A stretch of DNA of 64,000 nt from Candidatus Saccharimonadales bacterium (GTDB taxonomy: Bacteria; Patescibacteriota; Saccharimonadia; Saccharimonadales; EFPC-124): contig DASTDY010000058.1 in the NCBI GenBank assembly GCA_035710125.1, forward strand, positions 704-64,703, in the 5' to 3' direction. This document shows, piece after piece, positions 49,389 to 61,341 of this stretch. How positions within the stretch are numbered: the stretch's first letter is position 1; each line of letters opens with the position of its first letter. The notes beneath the pieces were generated by a model. The model ran no database searches, was not told where the DNA came from, and saw only the letters and a program-made list of their open reading frames with translations. A program made the translations under genes and the position numbers.

Positions 49389-50549
49389 CTACGCCTTTTT
49401 ATCTGCTTTTTTAGGGAATAGCCGCACACCGATCGCAACAATTGTCGCGCCCAGCCCCATTAAGACAGCAAAGAACACTACGAATCCGCCAATAAACGGA
49501 ACTAATCCAAGCAACGACAGAACAAGTAGTCCCAAGAATAAACTCACTACACGACGGCCGCGTGATGGCCAATGGAGTTTTTCTACGATCACCCAACCAA
49601 GCCCGTAACCAGCGACTGCAAGTGCGCCAATGAGACAAATGGTAAGCATTAAAGCCAAAATAATTGCGAGCGGCAGTCCAAACAAGCTGGCAAACAACAA
49701 CACAATAAGCGCTGGCACGAGCAAAATACTTGCGGCTCCGCCCGTTGCTGAGGCTATTGGCCTCTTGCGGAACACAGCTGCCACAGCGTCGAATCCGCGA
49801 GGAGCAAGGGCAATTGCAGCAACACCAATCATAAACATTGCGATTAAGCCGTAAAATGCACCCCAAATCATGGCGGCTGTTTTGTTTGCGGGCCCGTTAT
49901 CTGTTGTTTGTGTATATTTAGTCTCGCCTTGTACTACTGCACCATCTGCCATTGTTGCCGGCGTGCTACCGCTGTAAGTCAGGTTACCTTGCACTATAAG
50001 CTTGGAGTCTAGGTTTAAGGTGCTAAATTCACCATCTACGTTGCGCCCTACATTGCCGGCTAGCCTCATTGCCACTGCGTTGCCCAGGATATCCCGCCCA
50101 ACACTACCATCTACAACAGTGCGGCTAGACGCAAATGTAAAATCGCGGCCAATTTTACTGTCTTGCTTTACATTTATGTTTTCTGCAAAAACAGTCGCGC
50201 TACCGCCCACGCTTGCGGCAACCTCAACGTCTACACCGGCTACACGGACATCGCCCATGACATTACCGTCGATATGTACGATCTGGCCGGCGCATATTAC
50301 ATCGCCCTCAACCGTGCCAGTTATATTTACGTTTTGGCCAGCGCAAAATAAATCGCCCTTGACCGTGCCTGCGACTGTCACTGTGTTGCCAGCAATGTAA
50401 AGTGAATTGTTTGTTGAATCACCAGCAGCTAGCGATGGCGTGTCACCGCCTCTTACATCTGTTGCGTGCGTCACGCCAATCCATGCAAAGCTAATTAATG
50501 CCCCTAAACCTACAATGAGTCCGATCGAGAGAAGTGCCCTTCGTTTCAT
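49389..50549 (-). CDS. bactofilin-like beta-helix repeat protein with C-terminal multi-TM domain
   Basis: Signal peptide. Repeats such as GTVKGDLFCAGQNVNITGTVEGDVICAGQIVHIDGNVMGDVRVAG. Four C-terminal hydrophobic segments. Confidence 0.6.
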   Translation of the reverse strand: MKRRALLSIGLIVGLGALISFAWIGVTHATDVRGGDTPSLAAGDSTNNSLYIAGNTVTVAGTVKGDLFCAGQNVNITGTVEGDVICAGQIVHIDGNVMGDVRVAGVDVEVAASVGGSATVFAENINVKQDSKIGRDFTFASSRTVVDGSVGRDILGNAVAMRLAGNVGRNVDGEFSTLNLDSKLIVQGNLTYSGSTPATMADGAVVQGETKYTQTTDNGPANKTAAMIWGAFYGLIAMFMIGVAAIALAPRGFDAVAAVFRKRPIASATGGAASILLVPALIVLLFASLFGLPLAIILALMLTICLIGALAVAGYGLGWVIVEKLHWPSRGRRVVSLFLGLLVLSLLGLVPFIGGFVVFFAVLMGLGATIVAIGVRLFPKKADKKA

Positions 50550-51410: not shown

Positions 51411-52424
51411 TCAGTCGCGTGTTGCCACCGCATATATAACATCTTGTAGACGTTGCCAAAGGTTAGGGTCGGCGCTTTGCAGCGCTAACTCTTGCGTGCC
51501 GAACGCAACACCTCGCCAACTAAAATTATGCGAACCGGTAAGCGCAACTTTAGCGCCATCGGGCATATCGAACAGCATGCACTTGGCATGTATCTTCTGC
51601 GTGCCTTCATATAGATTTGGCACATGCGTCACCCAGTTGTCCCATTGTTGGGCAACATCTGCCATGGTTACTCCTAAATGCCAAGGGGGTACAAAGTAAC
51701 AATCGGCCTTCTTTTGCTTGAGAATTTCTGCCAACCGGCCTGTCGGGCACATAAGCGACAAGTACTGCACAGATCTGGCCTGTTCTGCCAAATGACACGC
51801 CTGCGAGTAAATAATAGATTCGCCAGGAATGCCTGCATCGAACAAAAGCGTATTTTTTGCATCTAGCTTTTGCGTAGAATTATGCAAAGGATCAGAGTGC
51901 AAAAGCACTTTTGTAAGCACGGCAGCTATATGGGCGCTTTGTGTGTATAGCATGTAATCTATGTTGTCGAATGAAGAGTCGTCCAAATTTATGCCGCCAA
52001 AACTAAACACGTGGTCATCAACAATTGCGGCTTTGGCATGAAACCGGCCTTTGTATGGGATTACTCCTAGTGGTTTAGTCCAATGCACAGCACCGCCCAG
52101 CCGTTGGATATCACTGCAGAACTCGAGCGTACGCCTACATTCTTCTTTAAAAGTGCCAATTGGAACGTGTTCGGGCCGGCTTGCATCATGTAAACCGTAC
52201 GGGTCGGCAATTATATCTACCATTACACCTCGGCGTGCGGCCGCCATAACTGCGTCTAAGATTTGAGCCATGGCTGATCCAGTGCGGAGTACCAACGCCG
52301 CCAAAATAATTGATTTTTTGGCATTCTTAATGTGCCGTGCTAGCACTTGTGGATATTCTGACGCGGCAATAACGCGGAATGGCGCGCCAGACTTACTAGA
52401 ATCCGCCGCCATAACCGCCGCCAT
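51411..52424 (-). CDS. phospholipase D-superfamily protein with two HKD motifs
   Basis: FHAKAAIVDDHVFSFGGINL and IHAKCMLFD...VALTGSHNFS. The start is ambiguous (TTG 52439, ATG 52424 or ATG 52412), and every option overlaps the upstream gene. Confidence 0.75.
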   Translation of the reverse strand: MAAVMAADSSKSGAPFRVIAASEYPQVLARHIKNAKKSIILAALVLRTGSAMAQILDAVMAAARRGVMVDIIADPYGLHDASRPEHVPIGTFKEECRRTLEFCSDIQRLGGAVHWTKPLGVIPYKGRFHAKAAIVDDHVFSFGGINLDDSSFDNIDYMLYTQSAHIAAVLTKVLLHSDPLHNSTQKLDAKNTLLFDAGIPGESIIYSQACHLAEQARSVQYLSLMCPTGRLAEILKQKKADCYFVPPWHLGVTMADVAQQWDNWVTHVPNLYEGTQKIHAKCMLFDMPDGAKVALTGSHNFSWRGVAFGTQELALQSADPNLWQRLQDVIYAVATRD

Positions 52425-54219
52425 AACCTCTAAAGACAATCGACGGCTTATGGTAGTCGGTAACTTTGAGCGACTTTTGCGTATCTGTTGCCTGCGCCGG
52501 AATTATGTACAGCTCACTCCCCTTTTGCGACGCCAAAAGGTAGTTGTCGGTGTACCAGCCATAGGGGGTAAATTCAGATAATGAGGCAAGCTCTTTGCCG
52601 TTCCCGCCCTTAGCGTCGCCTACTAAAAGCGTATTTTTGCCGTCCCGAGGCTCATACCAAAACGTTTTTTGGCCAGATGGCGAAAGCAAAAACGTAGGGT
52701 AGTACTGGTTAAAGTCTTCGCTCTTGATGTTTGTGTTTTCCGTAATTGCGTCGTCCTCGTATTCATAGTAGTGGTACTTGCCTTCGGGCGAGTTGTATAC
52801 GGCAAAATAAATCTCATCGGCCTTATACGGCACTGCGTTGTTTATAAAATGGTTTGCGTCGAACGCTTTTAGCACCTTTTTGCCTGCACCGCTGGGTTGC
52901 AACGACACAATAGACATAGGTTTATTGTTTGCATATCCGCTCCAGCTTTTAACGAATACAATCACACCCTTTGAGTCTATGATATAAATATTGCTGAACT
53001 CCTCGCGCCTGTAATCGAAAGAACCCGTTCCTTCTGCCTGCGTCTCGTCTATAACTGCAAGCTTGTTAGTGTCGGCATCGAATGTCTTAAGCGCGGTTGC
53101 CTTTGGCTGCCAAGGCTTTAGCCCTAAGCGGTCAACCTTGTACACAAACGAGTGGTTGTGCCAGCCTACCAACGAGAAGTCGGCATTTCCTTCATCTACA
53201 ACACTGGTTTGGTTGTTAGAAGTGTTAATGAGGTATAATTTTGGTTTTTCGCTGTCACGACGCGCCTTTAAAAGCAAGAATTTCCAATCGCGTGAGGCTA
53301 GCAGAATGGTGCCACCTTCTTCTTCTTTGCCAGTGCCAGCGACCACCACTTGGGCATCTGAGCCATCAAGGTTAGCTTTCATTACATTGATCTTGCCAGT
53401 ACGCTTGCTTAAGAAGTACAGCGTACCACTAGGGGTTAGCGCAAAATCATTTTTACTGTCTTTTTGCTCAATAACCGTTACTTCAGCTTCTTGCGCATTA
53501 AACCCGTCGGCGGTAAATGTTGCCTTTACAGTGGCACTCTCTGCCGGCACTACCAAGGTTGCCTCGCCAGCGTTATCTGTTATCGCACTGGTGTCGGCTA
53601 CTTTAATTGCAACCTTTTGAAGCGGCTCACCAGAGATTTTATTCTTAACTGTTACTGGAACTTGCCTGCCCGTTGCCTCAATTTTTACTTGGCCTGCGTC
53701 TGCGTTACTCAGAATGGGTACTGTAATGGCCTGCTCTACACTCTTAAAATATTTCTTCTTAATCGCCAACTGGTAATTGCCGACTGCCACATTGCGGAGC
53801 GTGGCTTTACCTTGGTCGTCTGTGTAACCCGTTACCCCCGGCAGGCTTACTTCGGCATCAGAGACCGGTTTGCCTGTTTTGCTATCTATTACCGTAACTG
53901 AAAGGTCTTTACGTATAAATGACCCTAAAATGCCGTAACGAGTAAACGGAATGAGCAGCAATACACTAACCAGCACAATAAGTGCACCTGCCCCGAGGGT
54001 AATTTTGCCCTTTTTAGTCTTTAGAAAATCTCGCCACGATCTTTTACCTTCGGTAGACGCAGCTCCACCCAGGCCAGCGCTGCCATTACTGTCATCTTTG
54101 GAGACTACTGGTTTGTGCAGTTCCGGGTTTTCTGCAGCATCTTCTTGCCCTTTAACATTAGTATCGGGCTGAGGCTTGTCTTCGGTATTTGCAGCCTTTG
54201 GCGAATCTTTTTTTGCCAT
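52396..54219 (-). CDS. membrane-anchored protein with carboxypeptidase-regulatory-like Ig domains and a beta-propeller-like C-terminal region
   Basis: TM LGAGALIVLVSVLLLIPF. Repeats VTVIDSKTGKPVSDAEVSL...GKATL and VTVKNKISGEPLQKVAIKV...GEATL. TolB-like repeats. Tail GYGGGYGGGF. Start set at MAKKDSP (54219) with AAAGGAG upstream. Confidence 0.6.
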   Translation of the reverse strand: MAKKDSPKAANTEDKPQPDTNVKGQEDAAENPELHKPVVSKDDSNGSAGLGGAASTEGKRSWRDFLKTKKGKITLGAGALIVLVSVLLLIPFTRYGILGSFIRKDLSVTVIDSKTGKPVSDAEVSLPGVTGYTDDQGKATLRNVAVGNYQLAIKKKYFKSVEQAITVPILSNADAGQVKIEATGRQVPVTVKNKISGEPLQKVAIKVADTSAITDNAGEATLVVPAESATVKATFTADGFNAQEAEVTVIEQKDSKNDFALTPSGTLYFLSKRTGKINVMKANLDGSDAQVVVAGTGKEEEGGTILLASRDWKFLLLKARRDSEKPKLYLINTSNNQTSVVDEGNADFSLVGWHNHSFVYKVDRLGLKPWQPKATALKTFDADTNKLAVIDETQAEGTGSFDYRREEFSNIYIIDSKGVIVFVKSWSGYANNKPMSIVSLQPSGAGKKVLKAFDANHFINNAVPYKADEIYFAVYNSPEGKYHYYEYEDDAITENTNIKSEDFNQYYPTFLLSPSGQKTFWYEPRDGKNTLLVGDAKGGNGKELASLSEFTPYGWYTDNYLLASQKGSELYIIPAQATDTQKSLKVTDYHKPSIVFRGYGGGYGGGF

Positions 54220-54416
54220 TACTTTAGCTCCTTTTGCATTTAGCATAATCGTCTTTGGGGTACAACCGCAACCCTGTTTTTATATCACAAGCATAAGATT
54301 TATATTGAGCTAATGTTTTTGAACAAATCACAAAAATATTAAAAAGTATTGATTTTTGACAAAAAGAGAGTACGATGAAGTAGTTAGTTAAAATAACAAC
54401 ACTAAGGAGTAAGAAA

Positions 54417-54575
54417 GTGTACGTTTTAGGTAACTCTACAAGCGTGCCACCTGTGCTTCCTGACACAAGTGGTAGCATTCTCGCAGTCGTGACTGTTATT
54501 ACTTTAGCGATTGGCGCCGCAGTGATCATTACTACTGCCGCCCGTCAAATCGCCAAAAAGCATTACAGCGCCTAA
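54417..54575 (+). CDS. 52-aa mini-protein consisting essentially of a sortase-type sorting signal
   Basis: AAGGAG (54404-54409) lies 7 nt before GTG 54417. An in-frame TAG at 54381 rules out a longer N-terminus. Sequence: VYVLGNSTSVPPV-LPDTSG-SILAVVTVITLAIGAAVIITTAA-RQIAKKHYSA. The sortase gene lies 80 nt downstream. Absent from the ORF track because it is under 60 aa. Confidence 0.5.
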   Translation: MYVLGNSTSVPPVLPDTSGSILAVVTVITLAIGAAVIITTAARQIAKKHYSA

Positions 54576-54599
54576 GCTGTAAAATCTGTTCGCAAGTAA

Positions 54600-54630
54600 G
54601 GGTATGGTACCTCGGTGCCTGCCCTTTTTT
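54600..54630 (+). terminator. weak hairpin plus T6 between the mini-ORF and the sortase gene (possible attenuator)
   Basis: GGGTA...TGCCC imperfect stem followed by TTTTTT (54625-54630). Confidence 0.25.
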
Positions 54631-54655
54631 GCAACAGACACTTTGAACTAGCATT

Positions 54656-55231
54656 ATGAAAAAGAGCACCGCCATATCACTTTATATAATTGGCACGACA
54701 CTACTCGTTGCGGCCCTTATTTTAGGGGTGCAAACTTTGGGTTGGTTCCGCGCTGCGCCTGCGGTGGTCGCGCTCAATACAACGCCAGTTGCCCAGCCGG
54801 AGCAACCAAAAATTGGCGGTACACCTGTAAGGATCACTGTGCCCTCGCGTAACATTGACCTTACTATTATCCAAGGCTCATTTAACCAACAAACTGGCGA
54901 ATGGACGCTCAGCAACACAAACGCACATTTTGCCACCAACACGTCTGTTGCAAACAACAAAACTGGCAATACGCTCGTGTACGGACACGACACAGTGCAG
55001 GTATTTAAACCTCTGGAGCAGCTTGCGGTTGGCGACGTGGCATATATTTACACTGACAATGGCTACAAGTTTACCTACCGGTTCCGCAGCGCGATAGACG
55101 TGCCTCCAACCGATACGTCAATTTTTAGCTATCAGGGCGCACCCATTTTAACGCTGCAAACTTGCAGCGGCATATTAAGTCAGACCCGCCACCTTATGAC
55201 ATTCGACTTTATCGAGGTACAAAAAATATGA
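54656..55231 (+). CDS. sortase-family transpeptidase
   Basis: N-terminal TM. Catalytic triad context LVYGHD (His), LTLQTCSG (Cys) and QTRHLMTF (Arg). Confidence 0.85.
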   Translation: MKKSTAISLYIIGTTLLVAALILGVQTLGWFRAAPAVVALNTTPVAQPEQPKIGGTPVRITVPSRNIDLTIIQGSFNQQTGEWTLSNTNAHFATNTSVANNKTGNTLVYGHDTVQVFKPLEQLAVGDVAYIYTDNGYKFTYRFRSAIDVPPTDTSIFSYQGAPILTLQTCSGILSQTRHLMTFDFIEVQKI

Positions 55232-56517
55232 ATGACCTTTGGATTTGGCTTTTCTGGCTCTTCACCGTAGCGAGCGTCATGAACACACTACATATTGGTT
55301 TTTACCTAATAAGTGCCAATGTGTACGATATCCGCCAATTTAAACTCGCCAAAAAAAAGCGGCCTCGTGGCACATTGCCGCTCGTCACGGTTGCTATTTC
55401 TGCCCACAACGAAGAAAAGGTGATCATCCGCACGCTTGAGTCGCTATTACGGTCACGCTACCCACATGTGCAGATCTTAATCATGGACGATGCTTCTACC
55501 GACACCACGAGCCAACTCGTAAATAACTTTATTTCTAGCCACCCAAAGGCCGACATAACAATTCGCTACAAAACTAAAAATGTAGGCAAAGGGCGGGCGC
55601 TTAATTCGGCCATGCAGCGCTACGCCAAGGGCGAGTTTATTATGACTCTCGATGCCGACTGTATTTTACACCCAGACGCTATTCGCAATGCTATAAAATA
55701 TTTTGATGACCCAAAAGTAGCAGGCGTTGCTGCCAATGTTAGGATTATCCGTGAACCAGGTGTTATTTCGCTTTTGCAGGTTTTGGAGCATATGATTGGG
55801 TATAGGTCTAAAAAAGCGTATTCCCTCACCAACTCCGAATGCATAGTTGGCGGCGTTGGATCCATGTACCGCAAAAGTGTGCTTAAAACAGTTGGATTTT
55901 ACGATACCGACACACTCACAGAAGACATCGGCCTCAGCATGAAAGTCGCCGCCCAGGGCAACAAAAACTTCCGCCTAGTATACGCAGCCGACGTTGTTGC
56001 AATGACCGAAGGCGTCCCAACTTTTAAAGCACTTGTAAAACAACGCTACCGCTGGAAATACGGCATGCTACAAAACCTTATAAAATATGCGTACCTCATT
56101 GGTAAAACCGACCACAAGTTTACCCGCTCACTCACCTGGTACCGCCTACCAATGGCATTTTTGAGCGAGCTCATGTTGCTACTTGAACCGTTCATTTTAG
56201 GGTATGTGTTGTATGTGAGTTATGTTATGCAGAATCCTGCATCTGTTGTAGGGTCGTACGGGCTCATTACAATTTACTTGTTGCTCAATCTGCTTCCCGA
56301 TGAACATACCGATGCCAAGGGACGTGCCCGTCTACTGCTCAACGCACCAGTTGCCTATTTTATCTTTTACATTATGAACATCGTGCAGTTTACCGCCATT
56401 GTGCGCTGCCTCGCCCACAGCAAAAGCCTGTTTGCTCGCCAAAAACACGTTGGTATCTGGGAATCACCAGAACGCAGCGGCATTGCCAGTATTTCATTTA
56501 AACAAAAGATTGCATAA
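55228..56517 (+). CDS. processive family-2 glycosyltransferase (PgaC/IcaA/cellulose-chitin synthase-like)
   Basis: Its ATG overlaps the sortase stop (ATGA). Motifs DDASTD, LDADC, TEDIGLS and QRYRW, plus N- and C-terminal TM segments. Confidence 0.85.
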   Translation: MNDLWIWLFWLFTVASVMNTLHIGFYLISANVYDIRQFKLAKKKRPRGTLPLVTVAISAHNEEKVIIRTLESLLRSRYPHVQILIMDDASTDTTSQLVNNFISSHPKADITIRYKTKNVGKGRALNSAMQRYAKGEFIMTLDADCILHPDAIRNAIKYFDDPKVAGVAANVRIIREPGVISLLQVLEHMIGYRSKKAYSLTNSECIVGGVGSMYRKSVLKTVGFYDTDTLTEDIGLSMKVAAQGNKNFRLVYAADVVAMTEGVPTFKALVKQRYRWKYGMLQNLIKYAYLIGKTDHKFTRSLTWYRLPMAFLSELMLLLEPFILGYVLYVSYVMQNPASVVGSYGLITIYLLLNLLPDEHTDAKGRARLLLNAPVAYFIFYIMNIVQFTAIVRCLAHSKSLFARQKHVGIWESPERSGIASISFKQKIA

Positions 56518-56528
56518 GGACAATAAAT

Positions 56529-58376
56529 ATGGTAAAGTTAATTCCACTAAAATTACAACACAAGCTCACGTCGGTGACGGGACGCTTTTTACAGATCGGA
56601 TCACAGATGTCATTAAAAAAACTAAGCACTCTTGTAGCCGCGATCGCTGCGAGCGGCCTGCTGCTACTTGGCCAGTCAGCGCCGGCTTTGGCAGCTGCTA
56701 CTTGGCCAGCGCCAGCCGCAGCAATTTCGTTTACGTTTGACGACGGCTTTGCCAGCGTATACACCCAAGCTAAACCAGCCTTAGCCAAGTATGGACTTAA
56801 TGGCACTAGTTATGTTGTAACAGATTGCGTTGGCATGACAAAAACCCCCAACACCTGTCGTGCAGACAACGACAAACCTTACATGACCTGGACGCAGATT
56901 AAGCAACTACAAGCATCAGGCTGGGAGATTGGCTCGCACAGCAAGACCCATCCATACCTTGCCAGTAGCGACGCAGATGATGGCCAACCTAATGTATTAA
57001 CTCCCGCCCAAGTAGAACAAGAGCTGTCACAAAGCAAGGCAGCGCTTGCAGCCCAAGGCATCAACGCTATGAGCTTTGCAAGCCCATATGGTGACTACAA
57101 TAACGCCACACTTGCAAAAATCGCCAAATACTACCAGACTCACCGAGGTTTTGCCGACACCAACAACAACCAATGGCCATTTAACGACTACCTGCTTAAC
57201 AACTTCCCCGTACAAGAAGGCGTGACGGTAGACCAGGTAAAAGCAAAAATCGACGATGCCATTGCTAACAAACGCTGGTTAGTACTGACATTCCATAATA
57301 TTGCTACCTCGCCAAGCACAAACCCAGACGACTACGAATACTCTACAGCCAAACTTGAACAAATCGCAGCCTACGTAAAAAGTAAGCAAAGTGCGGGCCT
57401 CATTAAAAATACATTAGTGAAGAATGGCATCGTAAAAGGCGACACAAACATGTTTGCGAACGGCGGATTTGAATCTGGCATTAGCGGCGGCTGGTCAACA
57501 GACAACACTTCCGTCTTTAAGGCCAACAACGCCGGTAACGGCAACGCTACTGGACCTAACAAATCGGTAGCCGTTACAGCCGGCCCAACAACTGCGCACC
57601 TATATTCGCCAAAAGTAACGGTAAATAGTGCGCAAAGCTACCTTATAAAGAGCTACCTGAATGTGGCCGCCATAAAATCTGGCGAAATCGGCTATTACAT
57701 AGACGAATACGACGCAAGCGGTAATTGGGTGAGCGGGCAATGGAAAAAGGCCGAGAATGCTGCCTTTGTAGAGGGCATTAACTTTAGCTACACCCCAAGT
57801 TCTACCGCAGTAAAACAAGCCCAGTTGCAAATTTACGTTACAGGCAATTCGGGCATAAAAGCGTTTATAGATGGATTCTTCATGTTTGCGCTGAACGGAG
57901 CTACGCCCACACCTGTTACACCAACTAACCTTGTTGCCAACGGCACATTCGACGCTGGTATAAGCGGCGGCTGGTCAACAAACAGCCAATCCACAATTAC
58001 TGCCGACCAAAACAATAACGGCAGCCCTGCTAATCCTGTTAACTCAGTTCGGCTTACCTCTGCCACACAAGAGCGCCATTTGTTTGGCCCAAATGTAGCG
58101 GTGAACTCCGGTAAAAGCTATACTATTGCCAGTTACCTCAGCGTAAAGGCAATCACGGCTGGAGAAATCGGCTATTACATAGACGAATACGACGCAAGCG
58201 GTAATTGGGTGAGTGGCCAATGGAAATCCGGCATCAGCACTGTAGGCGCAAAAGAGCTTAGCTTACAATACAGCCCGAGTTCTACGGCTGTCGCATATGC
58301 AAGCCTGCAAATAATTGTGCCCGCGAATGCAAGCTTGAATGCATACATTGACCACATTCGGTGGTACCAAAACTAG
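56529..58376 (+). CDS. secreted polysaccharide deacetylase (NodB domain) with two C-terminal carbohydrate-binding-like jelly-roll repeats
   Basis: NodB motifs TFDDGF and GSHSKTHP. The signal peptide MSLKKLSTLVAAIAASGLLLLGQSAPALA suggests the real start may be ATG 56607. Two 160-aa repeats (GGFESGISGGWST... / GTFDAGISGGWST...). Confidence 0.8.
   Translation: MVKLIPLKLQHKLTSVTGRFLQIGSQMSLKKLSTLVAAIAASGLLLLGQSAPALAAATWPAPAAAISFTFDDGFASVYTQAKPALAKYGLNGTSYVVTDCVGMTKTPNTCRADNDKPYMTWTQIKQLQASGWEIGSHSKTHPYLASSDADDGQPNVLTPAQVEQELSQSKAALAAQGINAMSFASPYGDYNNATLAKIAKYYQTHRGFADTNNNQWPFNDYLLNNFPVQEGVTVDQVKAKIDDAIANKRWLVLTFHNIATSPSTNPDDYEYSTAKLEQIAAYVKSKQSAGLIKNTLVKNGIVKGDTNMFANGGFESGISGGWSTDNTSVFKANNAGNGNATGPNKSVAVTAGPTTAHLYSPKVTVNSAQSYLIKSYLNVAAIKSGEIGYYIDEYDASGNWVSGQWKKAENAAFVEGINFSYTPSSTAVKQAQLQIYVTGNSGIKAFIDGFFMFALNGATPTPVTPTNLVANGTFDAGISGGWSTNSQSTITADQNNNGSPANPVNSVRLTSATQERHLFGPNVAVNSGKSYTIASYLSVKAITAGEIGYYIDEYDASGNWVSGQWKSGISTVGAKELSLQYSPSSTAVAYASLQIIVPANASLNAYIDHIRWYQN
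57684..58213 (+). repeat. 50-nt perfect direct repeat (57684-57733 and 58164-58213) inside the two diverged C-terminal domains
   Basis: gaaatcggctattacatagacgaatacgacgcaagcggtaattgggtgag occurs twice, exactly 480 nt apart. It encodes the EIGYYIDEYDASGNWVS core of the shared GEIGYYIDEYDASGNWVSGQWK block. Confidence 0.9.
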
Positions 58377-58778: not shown

Positions 58779-59156
58779 CTACTCCAAGGATTTTATAATA
58801 TTCAAAAGATCGTCTAGCACAATCTCTGCTTTGATAACGTAGCCGTCCATATCTTTATGCACCTGCGGACTCACCTTAGAAGCGTCGCCCAAGTTGGTGA
58901 GCATAACAATCTTTGCAAGCGTACAGTTGTATTCTGGGTTGTGGCGCAGAATCTTCAACACCTCAAACCCATCTTTTTTTGGCATCATAACATCAAGAAA
59001 AATGAGGTCTGGCTTGTATTCCTTAGCAACGTCTAACGCTTGGTCTCCATCGTTTGCAATTGCAACCTCGAAACCACTTTGTGTTAAAAAAAGATGATAA
59101 ATTTCTATTAACTGAGCATTATCTTCAACGAGTAATATTTTGCGTAGTCCAGCCAT
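58779..59156 (-). CDS. single-domain (CheY-like) response regulator
   Basis: KILLVEDN...DLIFLDVMMPKKDGFEVL...K: receiver domain only, 125 aa. AGGAGG SD. Overlaps the kinase gene by 32 nt. Confidence 0.9.
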   Translation of the reverse strand: MAGLRKILLVEDNAQLIEIYHLFLTQSGFEVAIANDGDQALDVAKEYKPDLIFLDVMMPKKDGFEVLKILRHNPEYNCTLAKIVMLTNLGDASKVSPQVHKDMDGYVIKAEIVLDDLLNIIKSLE

Positions 59157-61341
59157 GTTGCCTCCTGATTGCTGTTACCTTGGATTGTGGTGCGGACGGC
59201 GTAATTGTATCTGCTTTAGGCAAGGTTATTATAAATGTAGAGCCTTTGCCTTCTTCGGAACTAAACGTAATTGTACCACCTTGCCGCTCGATTAACGATT
59301 TTGCAATGAACAACCCAAGCCCTGTACCGGTACTGCCGCTATCGAGCCCGCCGTGCACGCGGTAAAACTTAGTGAACAAGTTGGACTGCGATTGCTTGGG
59401 AATTCCCACGCCAGTATCTGTAACCTGCACACGGTAGTCTGCGCCTTGGACGCCAAGCAGCACACTCACCTTGCCACCTTCTGGCGTGTATTTTATGGCA
59501 TTCGAGATCAGGTTGTTAATAACCTCGTGCAATGCGATTCTGTCGGCAATGACAAAGCAACCCTCTGTTGCACCCTGATACACGACAGTGATTTTTTTAT
59601 CGCGGGCGCTAAATGTAGCCTCTTCGACCGCTTGCTTAACATCTGCGGCTATGTCTACATTCTCTAAATTAAAGGTGAGCGTGCCACGCTCTATGCGCGT
59701 AACATCAAGCAGGTTATTAATAAGGCCTCCCAACTCTGTAGAGCTTTTTAATGCCTGCTGCAAATATTTTGACGTATCATCGCTTGCAACGCCTTGGCCG
59801 CCTTTAAAAGTAATCAGTTCTAGATATCCGCGGATTGCGGCAAGCGGCGTGCGTAATTCGTGCGCAGCCATAGACACAAAGTCGACTTTCATAGCTTCTA
59901 GCTCTCGGTCTCTTGTTTCGTCATGGATTGTCACAATTGTTTGCGCGGCCTTTTGTTCTTGCTCGCCACTTACCCGTGCCACAATTAATTTAACGTAGCT
60001 GGTGGCGCCGGCAACGTTGGTAAATTCGAGATCTTCGTAGACCGCAGAATTTGCGGGCGCGTAGTCAGCGGTGAATGGCTGCCCTTGTTGTGTCCAGGCA
60101 AAAATGTCGTTAATATTTTTGCCAACCAATTTATCGGAATCGAGCCGGGCCATTTCAGCTGCCGCCTGGTTTACCAAAACAATCATGCCCTGCTTATCGA
60201 TTGCTAAGATACCTTCTTTTGTACTGTTAAGGATAACCTCGAGGCGATTACGTTGGGATTCGATACTGGTCACAAAAGTATCCAGGCTTATGCCCATGGC
60301 GTTAATACTTTCGGCAAGCATACCGATTTCGTCGTTGCGCCGCACAAAAGTCCGGGCCAAAAAGTCGCCTCTACCGATCCGCCTGGCGATTGTAGCAATC
60401 TGCAGTATTGGTTGGGTAAAGAACCTGGTAAGGCCAAGCGCGATTAATACAATCGCGCCAGACGATGTTAATACAATAATAAAAAGTAAGTTCCGTAATT
60501 GGTCGATTTGCGCCAAGGCTTCGGAGGTGTCAATTTTAGCCGCAATCACCCAATCGGCAAAACCAATTGATTTTGCAGCTACCATAACCTGCTTGCCCCG
60601 GTAGTCGGTGAGCTCTTTATAGTCTTGCTGGCCAGCTGGGGCAAAAAGCTGTAGCGAGCTTACATTTGTTTTTTGGGGGGCGTCAGCATCAAAACGCAAA
60701 GGAAACAGGGAGACCACAGTACCATCTTGCGTTTTCTCTGCTACGACCGTTTCTCCAGTGGTGCCTAGGCCAGTATAATCTTGAAGCGCGGCTATAATGT
60801 CGTCTATTCTAAACACCACACTCACCACCCCAGATTCAGTCTTGTTTACATTAACTTTAGCGGTAATATATAGCTTGTCTATGCCGTCACGCTGGTCTTT
60901 GCGTACTCCTGTGCTAATCTCTTGGCCTGCAGCAAGGGCAAAGTCTTGGGGGTCTAGCTGAGTTCCCTCCACATCGCGATTAGTAGATACAATTATCTTA
61001 CCTTTTAGGTCGGCCAGATGGATTGTTTGGATATCTGGGGTAGCAATTTTTTTAGCCAGTAAAATGGCACTTAGCTGTTCCTTTGCCTGTTTGTTCGTAA
61101 GGTACATGCCTAGCGTACGCTGAAGGTCAAACTTGTTAGAAAGCTCAATCGCTTCTTCTTGACGTTTTTGTAGCAAGCCATTTATACGTTGTTCTTGTTT
61201 TATGGCCGTACTTACTAGCTGTTCGGCAGTCTTACGCGTTAGGCCACTACTAATGGTTATGTAGGCAATGGCGCTCACTATTAAAGTGGGCACTAGGCCA
61301 ATTAACAACATAAGAATTGTGAGTTTTATCCTTATGCTCAT
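59125..61341 (-). CDS. sensor histidine kinase (extracytoplasmic Cache-like domain, HAMP, PAS, HisKA, HATPase_c)
   Basis: Two TMs flank an approximately 260-aa periplasmic region. HAMP IGRGDFLARTFVRRNDEIGMLAESINAM. H-box SMAAHELRTPL. N/G boxes NLISNAIKYT, DTGVGI and GTGLGL. Confidence 0.9.
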   Translation of the reverse strand: MSIRIKLTILMLLIGLVPTLIVSAIAYITISSGLTRKTAEQLVSTAIKQEQRINGLLQKRQEEAIELSNKFDLQRTLGMYLTNKQAKEQLSAILLAKKIATPDIQTIHLADLKGKIIVSTNRDVEGTQLDPQDFALAAGQEISTGVRKDQRDGIDKLYITAKVNVNKTESGVVSVVFRIDDIIAALQDYTGLGTTGETVVAEKTQDGTVVSLFPLRFDADAPQKTNVSSLQLFAPAGQQDYKELTDYRGKQVMVAAKSIGFADWVIAAKIDTSEALAQIDQLRNLLFIIVLTSSGAIVLIALGLTRFFTQPILQIATIARRIGRGDFLARTFVRRNDEIGMLAESINAMGISLDTFVTSIESQRNRLEVILNSTKEGILAIDKQGMIVLVNQAAAEMARLDSDKLVGKNINDIFAWTQQGQPFTADYAPANSAVYEDLEFTNVAGATSYVKLIVARVSGEQEQKAAQTIVTIHDETRDRELEAMKVDFVSMAAHELRTPLAAIRGYLELITFKGGQGVASDDTSKYLQQALKSSTELGGLINNLLDVTRIERGTLTFNLENVDIAADVKQAVEEATFSARDKKITVVYQGATEGCFVIADRIALHEVINNLISNAIKYTPEGGKVSVLLGVQGADYRVQVTDTGVGIPKQSQSNLFTKFYRVHGGLDSGSTGTGLGLFIAKSLIERQGGTITFSSEEGKGSTFIITLPKADTITPSAPQSKVTAIRRQHGWTTQNITR

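Follow-up and report, generated by a model that had tools for sequence, protein, structure and literature searches.

A candidate cargo-less sortase substrate encoded directly upstream of a small sortase in Saccharibacteria

The locus described here is located in a 64,000 nucleotide (nt) stretch of contig DASTDY010000058.1 from a Candidatus Saccharimonadales bacterium, below called the window, and centres on a gene for a 52 amino acid (aa) protein, below called the mini gene, directly upstream of a sortase gene. A summary of the features is given in Table 1. An earlier note on this DNA had placed the start of the mini gene at GTG 54417 with AAGGAG 7 nt upstream and an in-frame stop at 54381. 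All three were confirmed from the sequence, and the stop (TAG, 54381-54383) rules out a longer form of the open reading frame (ORF). The product MYVLGNSTSVPPVLPDTSGSILAVVTVITLAIGAAVIITTAARQIAKKHYSA (52 aa) has the layout MYVLGNSTSVPPV-LPDTSG-SILAVVTVITLAIGAAVIITTAA-RQIAKKHYSA, with an N-terminal tail (residues 1-13), LPDTSG (14-19), a hydrophobic, putative transmembrane (TM) segment of 23 residues (20-42) and a basic tail (43-52), which agrees with the tripartite sorting signal described before. Neither an N-terminal signal peptide nor a passenger domain is present, and merely 13 residues stand ahead of the motif. It is the sole ORF with a sorting-signal-like C-terminus in the window. The ORF is not unannotated, as had been stated: the identical protein exists at NCBI as 'hypothetical protein VFO38_03545' of Candidatus Saccharimonadales, hence the gene is called by annotation pipelines, yet unnamed.

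Table 1. Features of the mini gene locus in the window (position 1 is the first letter of the window).
Feature	Position	Strand	Remarks
Shine-Dalgarno AAGGAG	54404..54409	+	Read from sequence; 7-nt spacer before GTG start
Mini gene, putative sortase substrate, 52 aa	54417..54575	+	GTG 54417-54419, TAA 54573-54575
LPDTSG sorting motif, residues 14-19	54456..54473	+	Scissile bond expected between T17 and S18 by analogy with established sortase chemistry
Strong stem-loop, terminator/attenuator-like	54585..54638	+	Core 54600-54624, then T6 54625-54630
Small membrane-anchored sortase, 191 aa, N-terminal TM helix and catalytic domain	54656..55231	+	Pfam PF04203
PgaC/IcaA-like family-2 glycosyltransferase, 429 aa, multi-pass	55228..56517	+	Pfam Glycos_transf_2 E=1.4e-31
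Secreted CE4 polysaccharide deacetylase, 615 aa, two CBM_4_9 modules	56529..58376	+	Pfam Polysacc_deac_1

The sortase gene starts 80 nt downstream of the mini gene, with the His/Cys/Arg triad intact as reported earlier. Its product matches PF04203 with E=1.4e-18 (67.2 bits vs a cut-off of 26.6), and H111, C170 and R178 are invariant across 37 homologues. The AlphaFold2 (AF2) model shows a sortase fold with a predicted local distance difference test score of 88.7, for which Foldseek returns a probability of 1.0 to many sortases. The model is at a similar distance from solved sortases of the classes A, C, D and E (E~1e-9, 16-26% identity). Likewise the NCBIfam class models all score below their cut-offs (D 35.7/165, C 27.1/160, F 18.3/166, GN 22.8/158). 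An assignment to one class was therefore dropped, as neither sequence nor structure searches discriminate.

Two close homologues of the mini gene (85% and 79% identity) show the same gene order of small ORF, sortase, family-2 glycosyltransferase (GT2) and deacetylase. A scan of GTDB genomes with the single sortase sequence of the window gave no matches. Species-representative genomes scanned with a 17-sequence sortase alignment added 80 Saccharibacteria loci, in which the sortase shares 35-59% identity with that of the window. The locus set used in the following comprises the window and 82 Saccharibacteria loci (796 kb) with sortases 35-100% identical to that of the window. Among its 8458 stop-to-stop ORFs of at least 40 aa, LPxT(G/S/A/N) followed by a hydrophobic stretch and a basic C-terminus is found in 83, and 78 of these 83 are located immediately upstream of the sortase gene. 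This placement is far beyond chance. The 78 upstream ORFs divide into 59 minis of 51-65 aa and 19 long substrates, so that the small ORF with its LPxT motif beside a sortase, described by the earlier note for the window, recurs in relatives. Three loci lacking an upstream ORF of this kind end at a contig boundary. At locus L074 (4601-4843, minus strand) an LPNTG mini lies on the opposite strand while still adjoining the sortase gene; there the pairing has survived rearrangement.

The minis start with ATG (53/59) or GTG (6/59), in each case behind an AGGAG/GGAGG-type site, and the arrangement of AAGGAG, 7 nt and GTG is identical in the close relatives L001, L002 and L003. The gap to the sortase gene has a median of ~76 nt. 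46 of the 59 minis begin with Met-Tyr (MY), and Tyr is found at position 2 or 3 in 55. Aligning all 59 leaves M1, L14, P15 and T17 invariant, while G33, halfway along the helix, reaches a conservation of at least 90%. Between the mini genes of the window and L001 there are 39 nucleotide differences, 27 of them at third codon positions, amounting to 24 synonymous and 8 nonsynonymous codon changes. The mini gene is hence under purifying selection. A chance ORF or a mis-called start is ruled out by conservation, Shine-Dalgarno sites and codon statistics. A fragment of a disrupted longer gene was rejected as well, given the 170 nt of AT-rich intergenic DNA upstream, beside a divergent gene, and the stop at 54381.

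A profile search with the mini family returned 173 proteins at 90% clustering, and 275 clusters at 50% identity (E<=1e-3) among 1.84 billion representatives. The best 150 matches are nearly all 48-98 aa long and mostly aligned from the first residue or close to it. Hence the minis are a distinct small protein and not just any LPXTG tail. Members are named 'hypothetical protein' or 'LPXTG-motif cell wall-anchored protein' in the databases. The anchor model PF00746 (Gram_pos_anchor) matches 30/59 minis and TIGR01167 23/59 (E<0.1). The view that the gene is essentially a sorting signal paired with the adjacent sortase is thus supported by conservation, by purifying selection and by the anchor-model matches to its relatives.

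Leu, Pro and Thr of the LPxT motif are invariant in the 59 minis and the 19 long substrates. Position 5 of the mini motif is occupied by G (51), S (7) or A (1); LPNTG is found in 38 minis, LPNTS in five, LPTTS in one and LPDTS in the window alone. Ser at this position is also seen in long substrates (LPVTS, LPKTS, LPYTS, LPETS), and G always comes next. As Ser or Ala followed by Gly recurs in several distinct groups, minis as well as long substrates, Ser in LPDTSG appears to be a normal variant for this sortase family. The worry that had been raised about this residue is eased by such natural G/S/A variation in orthologous substrates, cleavage itself being predicted from sequence.

In the 19 remaining loci the upstream gene codes for an ordinary-looking substrate, which is 175-445 aa long and carries a signal peptide (MKKL...A.A) and a similar sorting signal. 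No Pfam domain is matched by these 19 long substrates. Comparing the mini alignment with the long-form C-termini using hhalign gave a match of 43 columns (probability 95.7%, E 8.8e-9), which covers the sorting-signal part only. A normal substrate with a homologous sorting signal in the same position indicates that this slot is reserved for the substrate of this sortase. The long forms share a near-invariant GGxG element (GG[KRMQ]G) 10-30 residues ahead of LPxT. GGxG also follows the MY start in about 27 minis (e.g. MYGGKGGG, MYEGGRGAG), as judged by eye only, and is missing in the mini of the window. A neighbour-joining tree of the sortases splits the long forms into a basal clade and a second one that is nested among clades of the minis.

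The match to the C-terminal module of long substrates, GGxG upstream of LPxT in both forms and the basal position of long forms in the sortase tree would suit an evolutionary remnant, i.e. the 3' end of a formerly longer surface-protein gene that retained a start codon and is now functionless or a decoy substrate. However, 59 of the 83 species-level loci have retained the mini with MY start, Shine-Dalgarno site, a length of 51-65 aa and synonymous-biased changes, and the mini family spans at least 275 clusters at 50% identity. A relic would not have persisted over such wide divergence, and we consider this explanation highly improbable. A pilin-like polymerisation via a conserved Lys was discarded, as Lys is present in some subfamilies only (GGKGGG), replaced by Arg in others and absent from the clade of the window.

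At five loci (L033:1289-4806, L037:1946-4857, L029:4324-9399, L046:4280-9342 and L017:4399-9639) the long substrate is part of a set of three paralogues, one of ~190 aa without anchor, one of ~716 aa with a C-terminal TM segment and one of ~190 aa with LPxTG. They are rich in Asn, Ser and Thr and match no Pfam family. These sets may represent an uncharacterised surface-fibre or pilus-like cluster.

The 80-nt spacer between mini gene and sortase gene folds with -34.4 kcal/mol (z = -5.6), and none of 200 shuffled sequences was as stable. Of the 'weak hairpin plus T6' assumed previously, the T6 holds while the hairpin is anything but weak. A hairpin directly followed by at least four T is found in 35/53 orthologous spacers vs 17/295 random 80-nt windows. 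The orthologous spacers fold with a median z of -4.2, and their hairpins have a median of -19.9 kcal/mol. Such an order of mini gene, hairpin and enzyme genes is typical where a small product is made in abundance and its enzymes are encoded behind it.

A regulatory device would look much the same, with a short ORF and then a strong terminator-like hairpin ahead of enzyme genes. It could act as a leader peptide attenuating the sortase and GT2 genes via the hairpin, or the C-terminal piece left after cleavage ('C-pep') could be read by the neighbouring two-component system, as reported for Streptococcus gordonii adhesins. A response regulator and a histidine kinase are indeed encoded downstream in the window (58779-61341, minus strand) and in L002, L003, L004 and L060, and the pair could regulate the locus in those lineages. 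Yet the two-component genes (clusters 6 and 7) occur in merely about 9-11 of the 83 loci. Moreover, leader peptides are not kept as LPxT, TM segment and basic tail over sortase identities down to 35%. The hairpin begins ~10 nt past the stop codon, and a model of ribosome stalling is not needed. A regulatory role is thus very unlikely.

The N-terminal tails in the family are 11-27 aa long (median 18, 13 in the window) and rich in Gly, Ala, Val and Thr, with a mean net charge of +0.1 and a Kyte-Doolittle hydropathy of 0.74. The TM segment reaches 2.52 (family median of the highest-scoring 19-residue Kyte-Doolittle window). At the C-terminus, the mean net charge over the last 14 residues is +3.4, whereby the basic tail comes in at least three unrelated sequence types. 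AF2, run on the mini with 57 sequences, predicts one helix at 20-50 and a disordered N-terminus. Following the positive-inside rule, charge, hydropathy and this model argue for an N-out/C-in orientation. LPDTSG would then be located at the outer face of the membrane, beside the catalytic domain of the membrane-anchored sortase. A helical hairpin with the N-tail as a first TM segment is unlikely with a median length of 18 aa, a hydropathy of 0.74, a tail containing N, S, T and PP in the window and only one helix in the AF2 model.

Phage Pf3 coat protein inserts through YidC without a signal peptide. Its architecture is that of the minis, with a single helix between a short N-tail (~18 aa) that is almost free of charge and a basic C-tail; in contrast, the mini shows no sequence relationship to it, and the same insertion route is assumed by analogy only. 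An architecture of the Pf3 type could account for the external exposure of an LPxTG motif in a protein devoid of a signal peptide.

In the window the ATG of the GT2 gene overlaps the stop codon of the sortase gene (ATGA, 55228-55231). Wherever a GT2 gene follows on the same strand (68 loci), a start codon is located between -11 and +8 nt from the sortase stop, 21 times at -4 and 13 times at -1. This spacing suggests co-production of sortase and synthase, which might even work as a complex. The GT2 translation shows the motifs DAD, TED and QRYRW. It aligns over the full length with TIGR03937 (PgaC_IcaA, E=2.2e-46), whereby its 158.6 bits are under the equivalog cut-off of 422.3, and further matches TIGR03111, an XrtG exosortase-associated glycosyltransferase (E=1.7e-27). 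GT2 adjoins the sortase in 57/59 mini loci and in 15/19 loci with the long form.

The next gene encodes a carbohydrate esterase family 4 (CE4) deacetylase (PF01522, E=5.9e-20; CBM_4_9 in two stretches). Its best sequence match in the PDB is BpsB/PgaB, the deacetylase of poly-N-acetylglucosamine (PNAG), with E=3.2e-7, and it reaches 43.8 bits with the PgaB equivalog model (cut-off 321.9). A CE4 gene is present at a distance of up to 2.5 kb from the sortase in 49/59 mini loci and in 0/19 long-form loci. Mini gene, hairpin, sortase, GT2 and CE4 thus form a conserved four-gene module. The coupling of sortase and GT2 and a CE4 that travels with the mini form are the most informative context of the gene, and the earlier note left both unused.

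PNAG synthases need a small membrane protein from the same operon (IcaAD, PgaCD). The mini, always encoded beside the sortase-GT2 pair, might correspondingly be a membrane subunit or cofactor which is not consumed: a partner of the synthase like IcaD or PgaD, either whole or as the TM-tail fragment left after cleavage, or a stabiliser of the sortase like SafA, which likewise has 52 aa and is sortase-linked. The conservation of G33 inside the helix would be in line with such a role. On the other hand, beyond Met1 only L, P and T of the sortase motif are invariant, the basic tail is of several unrelated types, and normal long substrates take the same slot in 19 loci. The terminator between the mini and the enzyme genes suggests an excess and not a 1:1 stoichiometry. 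Besides, IcaD and PgaD span the membrane twice and lack LPXTG, and SafA is opposite in position and topology with an FPW motif that is not present in the mini. A cofactor role is hence judged unlikely.

Taken together, the 52-aa product probably serves the neighbouring small sortase as a dedicated substrate without cargo, which would be inserted N-out and cut after Thr17. That the mini is a true sortase substrate at all is very likely from the comparative evidence. Remnant, regulatory device and cofactor are each weaker explanations than a cargo-less substrate. Our analysis suggests that the sortase attaches a very short peptide, and not a protein, to the cell envelope. Among the roles listed in the earlier note, that of a peptide attached to the wall or a polymer agrees best with these findings, while the comparison with SafA fails beyond size and sortase linkage.

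As a cargo-less substrate, the mini would be transcribed from its own promoter. The hairpin and T-run, which are observed and conserved, would let only some transcripts reach sortase, GT2 and, where present, CE4, such that partial read-through would provide the peptide in excess over the enzymes. The short, nearly uncharged N-tail would cross the membrane unaided, the helix would serve as anchor and the basic tail would stay in the cytoplasm. By analogy with established sortase chemistry, the external sortase domain (His111/Cys170/Arg178) would cut after Thr17, that is after the Thr of VPPVLPDTSGSIL, and pass the 17-residue peptide MYVLGNSTSVPPVLPDT to an amine of the envelope. The latter might be an amine of peptidoglycan or lipid II, or one on the product of the PgaC-like synthase and the CE4 deacetylase.

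By analogy with known sortases, peptidoglycan is the default candidate for the acceptor, albeit at less than an even chance. The tight coupling of sortase and GT2 along with the link to CE4 makes the glycan product a serious alternative, for which we see a tentative case. Rather doubtful is a peptide-glycan conjugation, where the sortase would ligate the LPxT peptide to free amines made by CE4 on a GlcNAc-type polymer, or anchor a peptide-primed glycan to the wall. Staphylococcus aureus SrtA takes sugar amines only as -CH2-NH2, e.g. 6-aminohexoses (PMC9060782, a review). A literature search on sugar amines as sortase nucleophiles returned nothing direct beyond this SrtA result.

Several points weigh against a cargo-less substrate or parts of this scheme. 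The restriction of SrtA speaks against a transfer to the C2 amine of glucosamine, unless the divergent enzyme differs. The mini of the window has Ser (LPDTS, then G) and not Gly at motif position 5 and matches no Pfam or NCBIfam model, the latter even at E<=1. The conserved Tyr2 and the GGxG of many relatives are outside what a pure sorting-signal model explains, and the purpose of an attached 17-residue peptide is not evident. Because of the sortase tree, the association of CE4 with the mini form may rest on about two evolutionary transitions. Finally, the entire case is comparative. A further point comes from Southlakia epibionticum, for which a transposon sequencing table lists two sortases, SEML1_0327 and SEML1_0711 (PMC10633639). 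One Saccharibacterium can hence have more than one sortase. The 448-aa sortase scores essential and adjoins a PEGA (prealbumin-like) domain protein, while a 199-aa 'class E sortase' is dispensable, its disruption giving a growth advantage in co-culture (PMC10633639). The gene of the latter is located between those for enolase and RNase Y with an upstream gap of 56 nt (PMC10633639), thus neither a mini gene nor GT2 is beside it. If this 199-aa sortase is the orthologue, the module is accessory, lost in that oral lineage and not universal in the phylum.

Other conserved neighbours in the locus set (clusters 4, 5, 8, 11, 15 etc.) are unrelated housekeeping genes (MurA-like EPSP family, serine hydroxymethyltransferase, GH10, RNase T, flavin mononucleotide reductase). 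Divergent to the mini gene, the window encodes a 616-aa membrane-anchored protein (52396-54246, minus strand) with two CarboxypepD_reg (prealbumin-like) domains, a beta-propeller-like region and a GYGGGYGGGF C-terminus; it is not kept across the 83 loci. Further away, a 386-aa protein (49389-50549, minus strand) exhibits an N-terminal signal-like segment and bactofilin-like repeats (Pfam E 3.7e-6, just under the cut-off) and, in its C-terminal part, a block of several hydrophobic helices. For a bactofilin-type domain such a membrane or extracytoplasmic setting is unusual.

By definition, a sortase substrate is a secreted protein in which a signal peptide and a passenger domain precede a C-terminal sorting signal. 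The minis resemble canonical LPXTG anchors (PF00746, TIGR01167) in LPxT, a hydrophobic helix of ~23 residues, a basic tail and a neighbouring sortase gene. They differ in lacking signal peptide and passenger, so that only the signal and 11-27 residues are left, and the mini of the window, with Ser at position 5, matches neither model. NF058583 ('LAXTG_small_WW') is a curated small-protein family likewise defined by a sortase motif, hence tiny proteins of this kind have already been noticed in other bacteria at the level of annotation. Its motif is LAXTG (with a WW signature by its name), however, and it matches only 2/59 minis (best E 7e-4) and not that of the window.

SafA of Actinomyces oris and Corynebacterium is a 52-aa protein encoded downstream of srtA, oriented N-in/C-out and devoid of LPXTG, whose exoplasmic FPW motif blocks cleavage of SrtA by signal peptidase (PMC9282373). 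Both SafA and the mini are small, sortase-linked single-pass membrane proteins of equal length. In contrast to SafA, the mini is encoded upstream of the sortase, is predicted to be N-out/C-in and has LPxT but no FPW. With the systems for PNAG and polysaccharide intercellular adhesin (PgaABCD, IcaADBC) the module shares a membrane GT2 that aligns in full with PgaC_IcaA, a CE4 with PgaB/BpsB as its closest PDB match and a small membrane protein encoded in the operon. PgaA, PgaD, IcaC and IcaD are absent, however, GT2 is far under the equivalog cut-off (158.6 vs 422), and sortase and LPxTG peptide belong to the Saccharibacteria module. Dedicated sortase-substrate pairs (class B, D and GN) are similar in combining one sortase with one adjacent target, and exosortase/PEP-CTERM systems in having an associated GT2, the GT2 of the window matching TIGR03111. 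Yet the targets in these known pairs carry real cargo, and the sortase of the window fits no NCBIfam class model.

Our literature search found no paper linking Saccharibacteria, sortase and such a peptide, and none on a sortase within a PNAG-type operon. What sets the mini family, which is conserved phylum-wide, apart from the known systems is that it consists only of a sorting signal and a tail of 11-27 residues, and that its operon is fixed and combines it with a sortase of its own outside the known classes, a PNAG-like synthase and a deacetylase. If processed, a short peptide rich in Gly, Ala, Val and Thr would be attached, and the sortase would modify the envelope itself instead of displaying a protein. 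Should the conjugation to glycan hold true, the result would be a peptide-decorated or peptide-tethered surface polysaccharide. Both such a sortase acceptor and this mode of exopolysaccharide attachment would be new. The module offers a handle on envelope construction in Saccharibacteria (Candidate Phyla Radiation/Patescibacteria), a group with a poorly understood surface biology on which its epibiotic life depends. Compared with other sortase-target pairs it represents a naturally minimal one, suited to test whether sortases use glycan amines in vivo.

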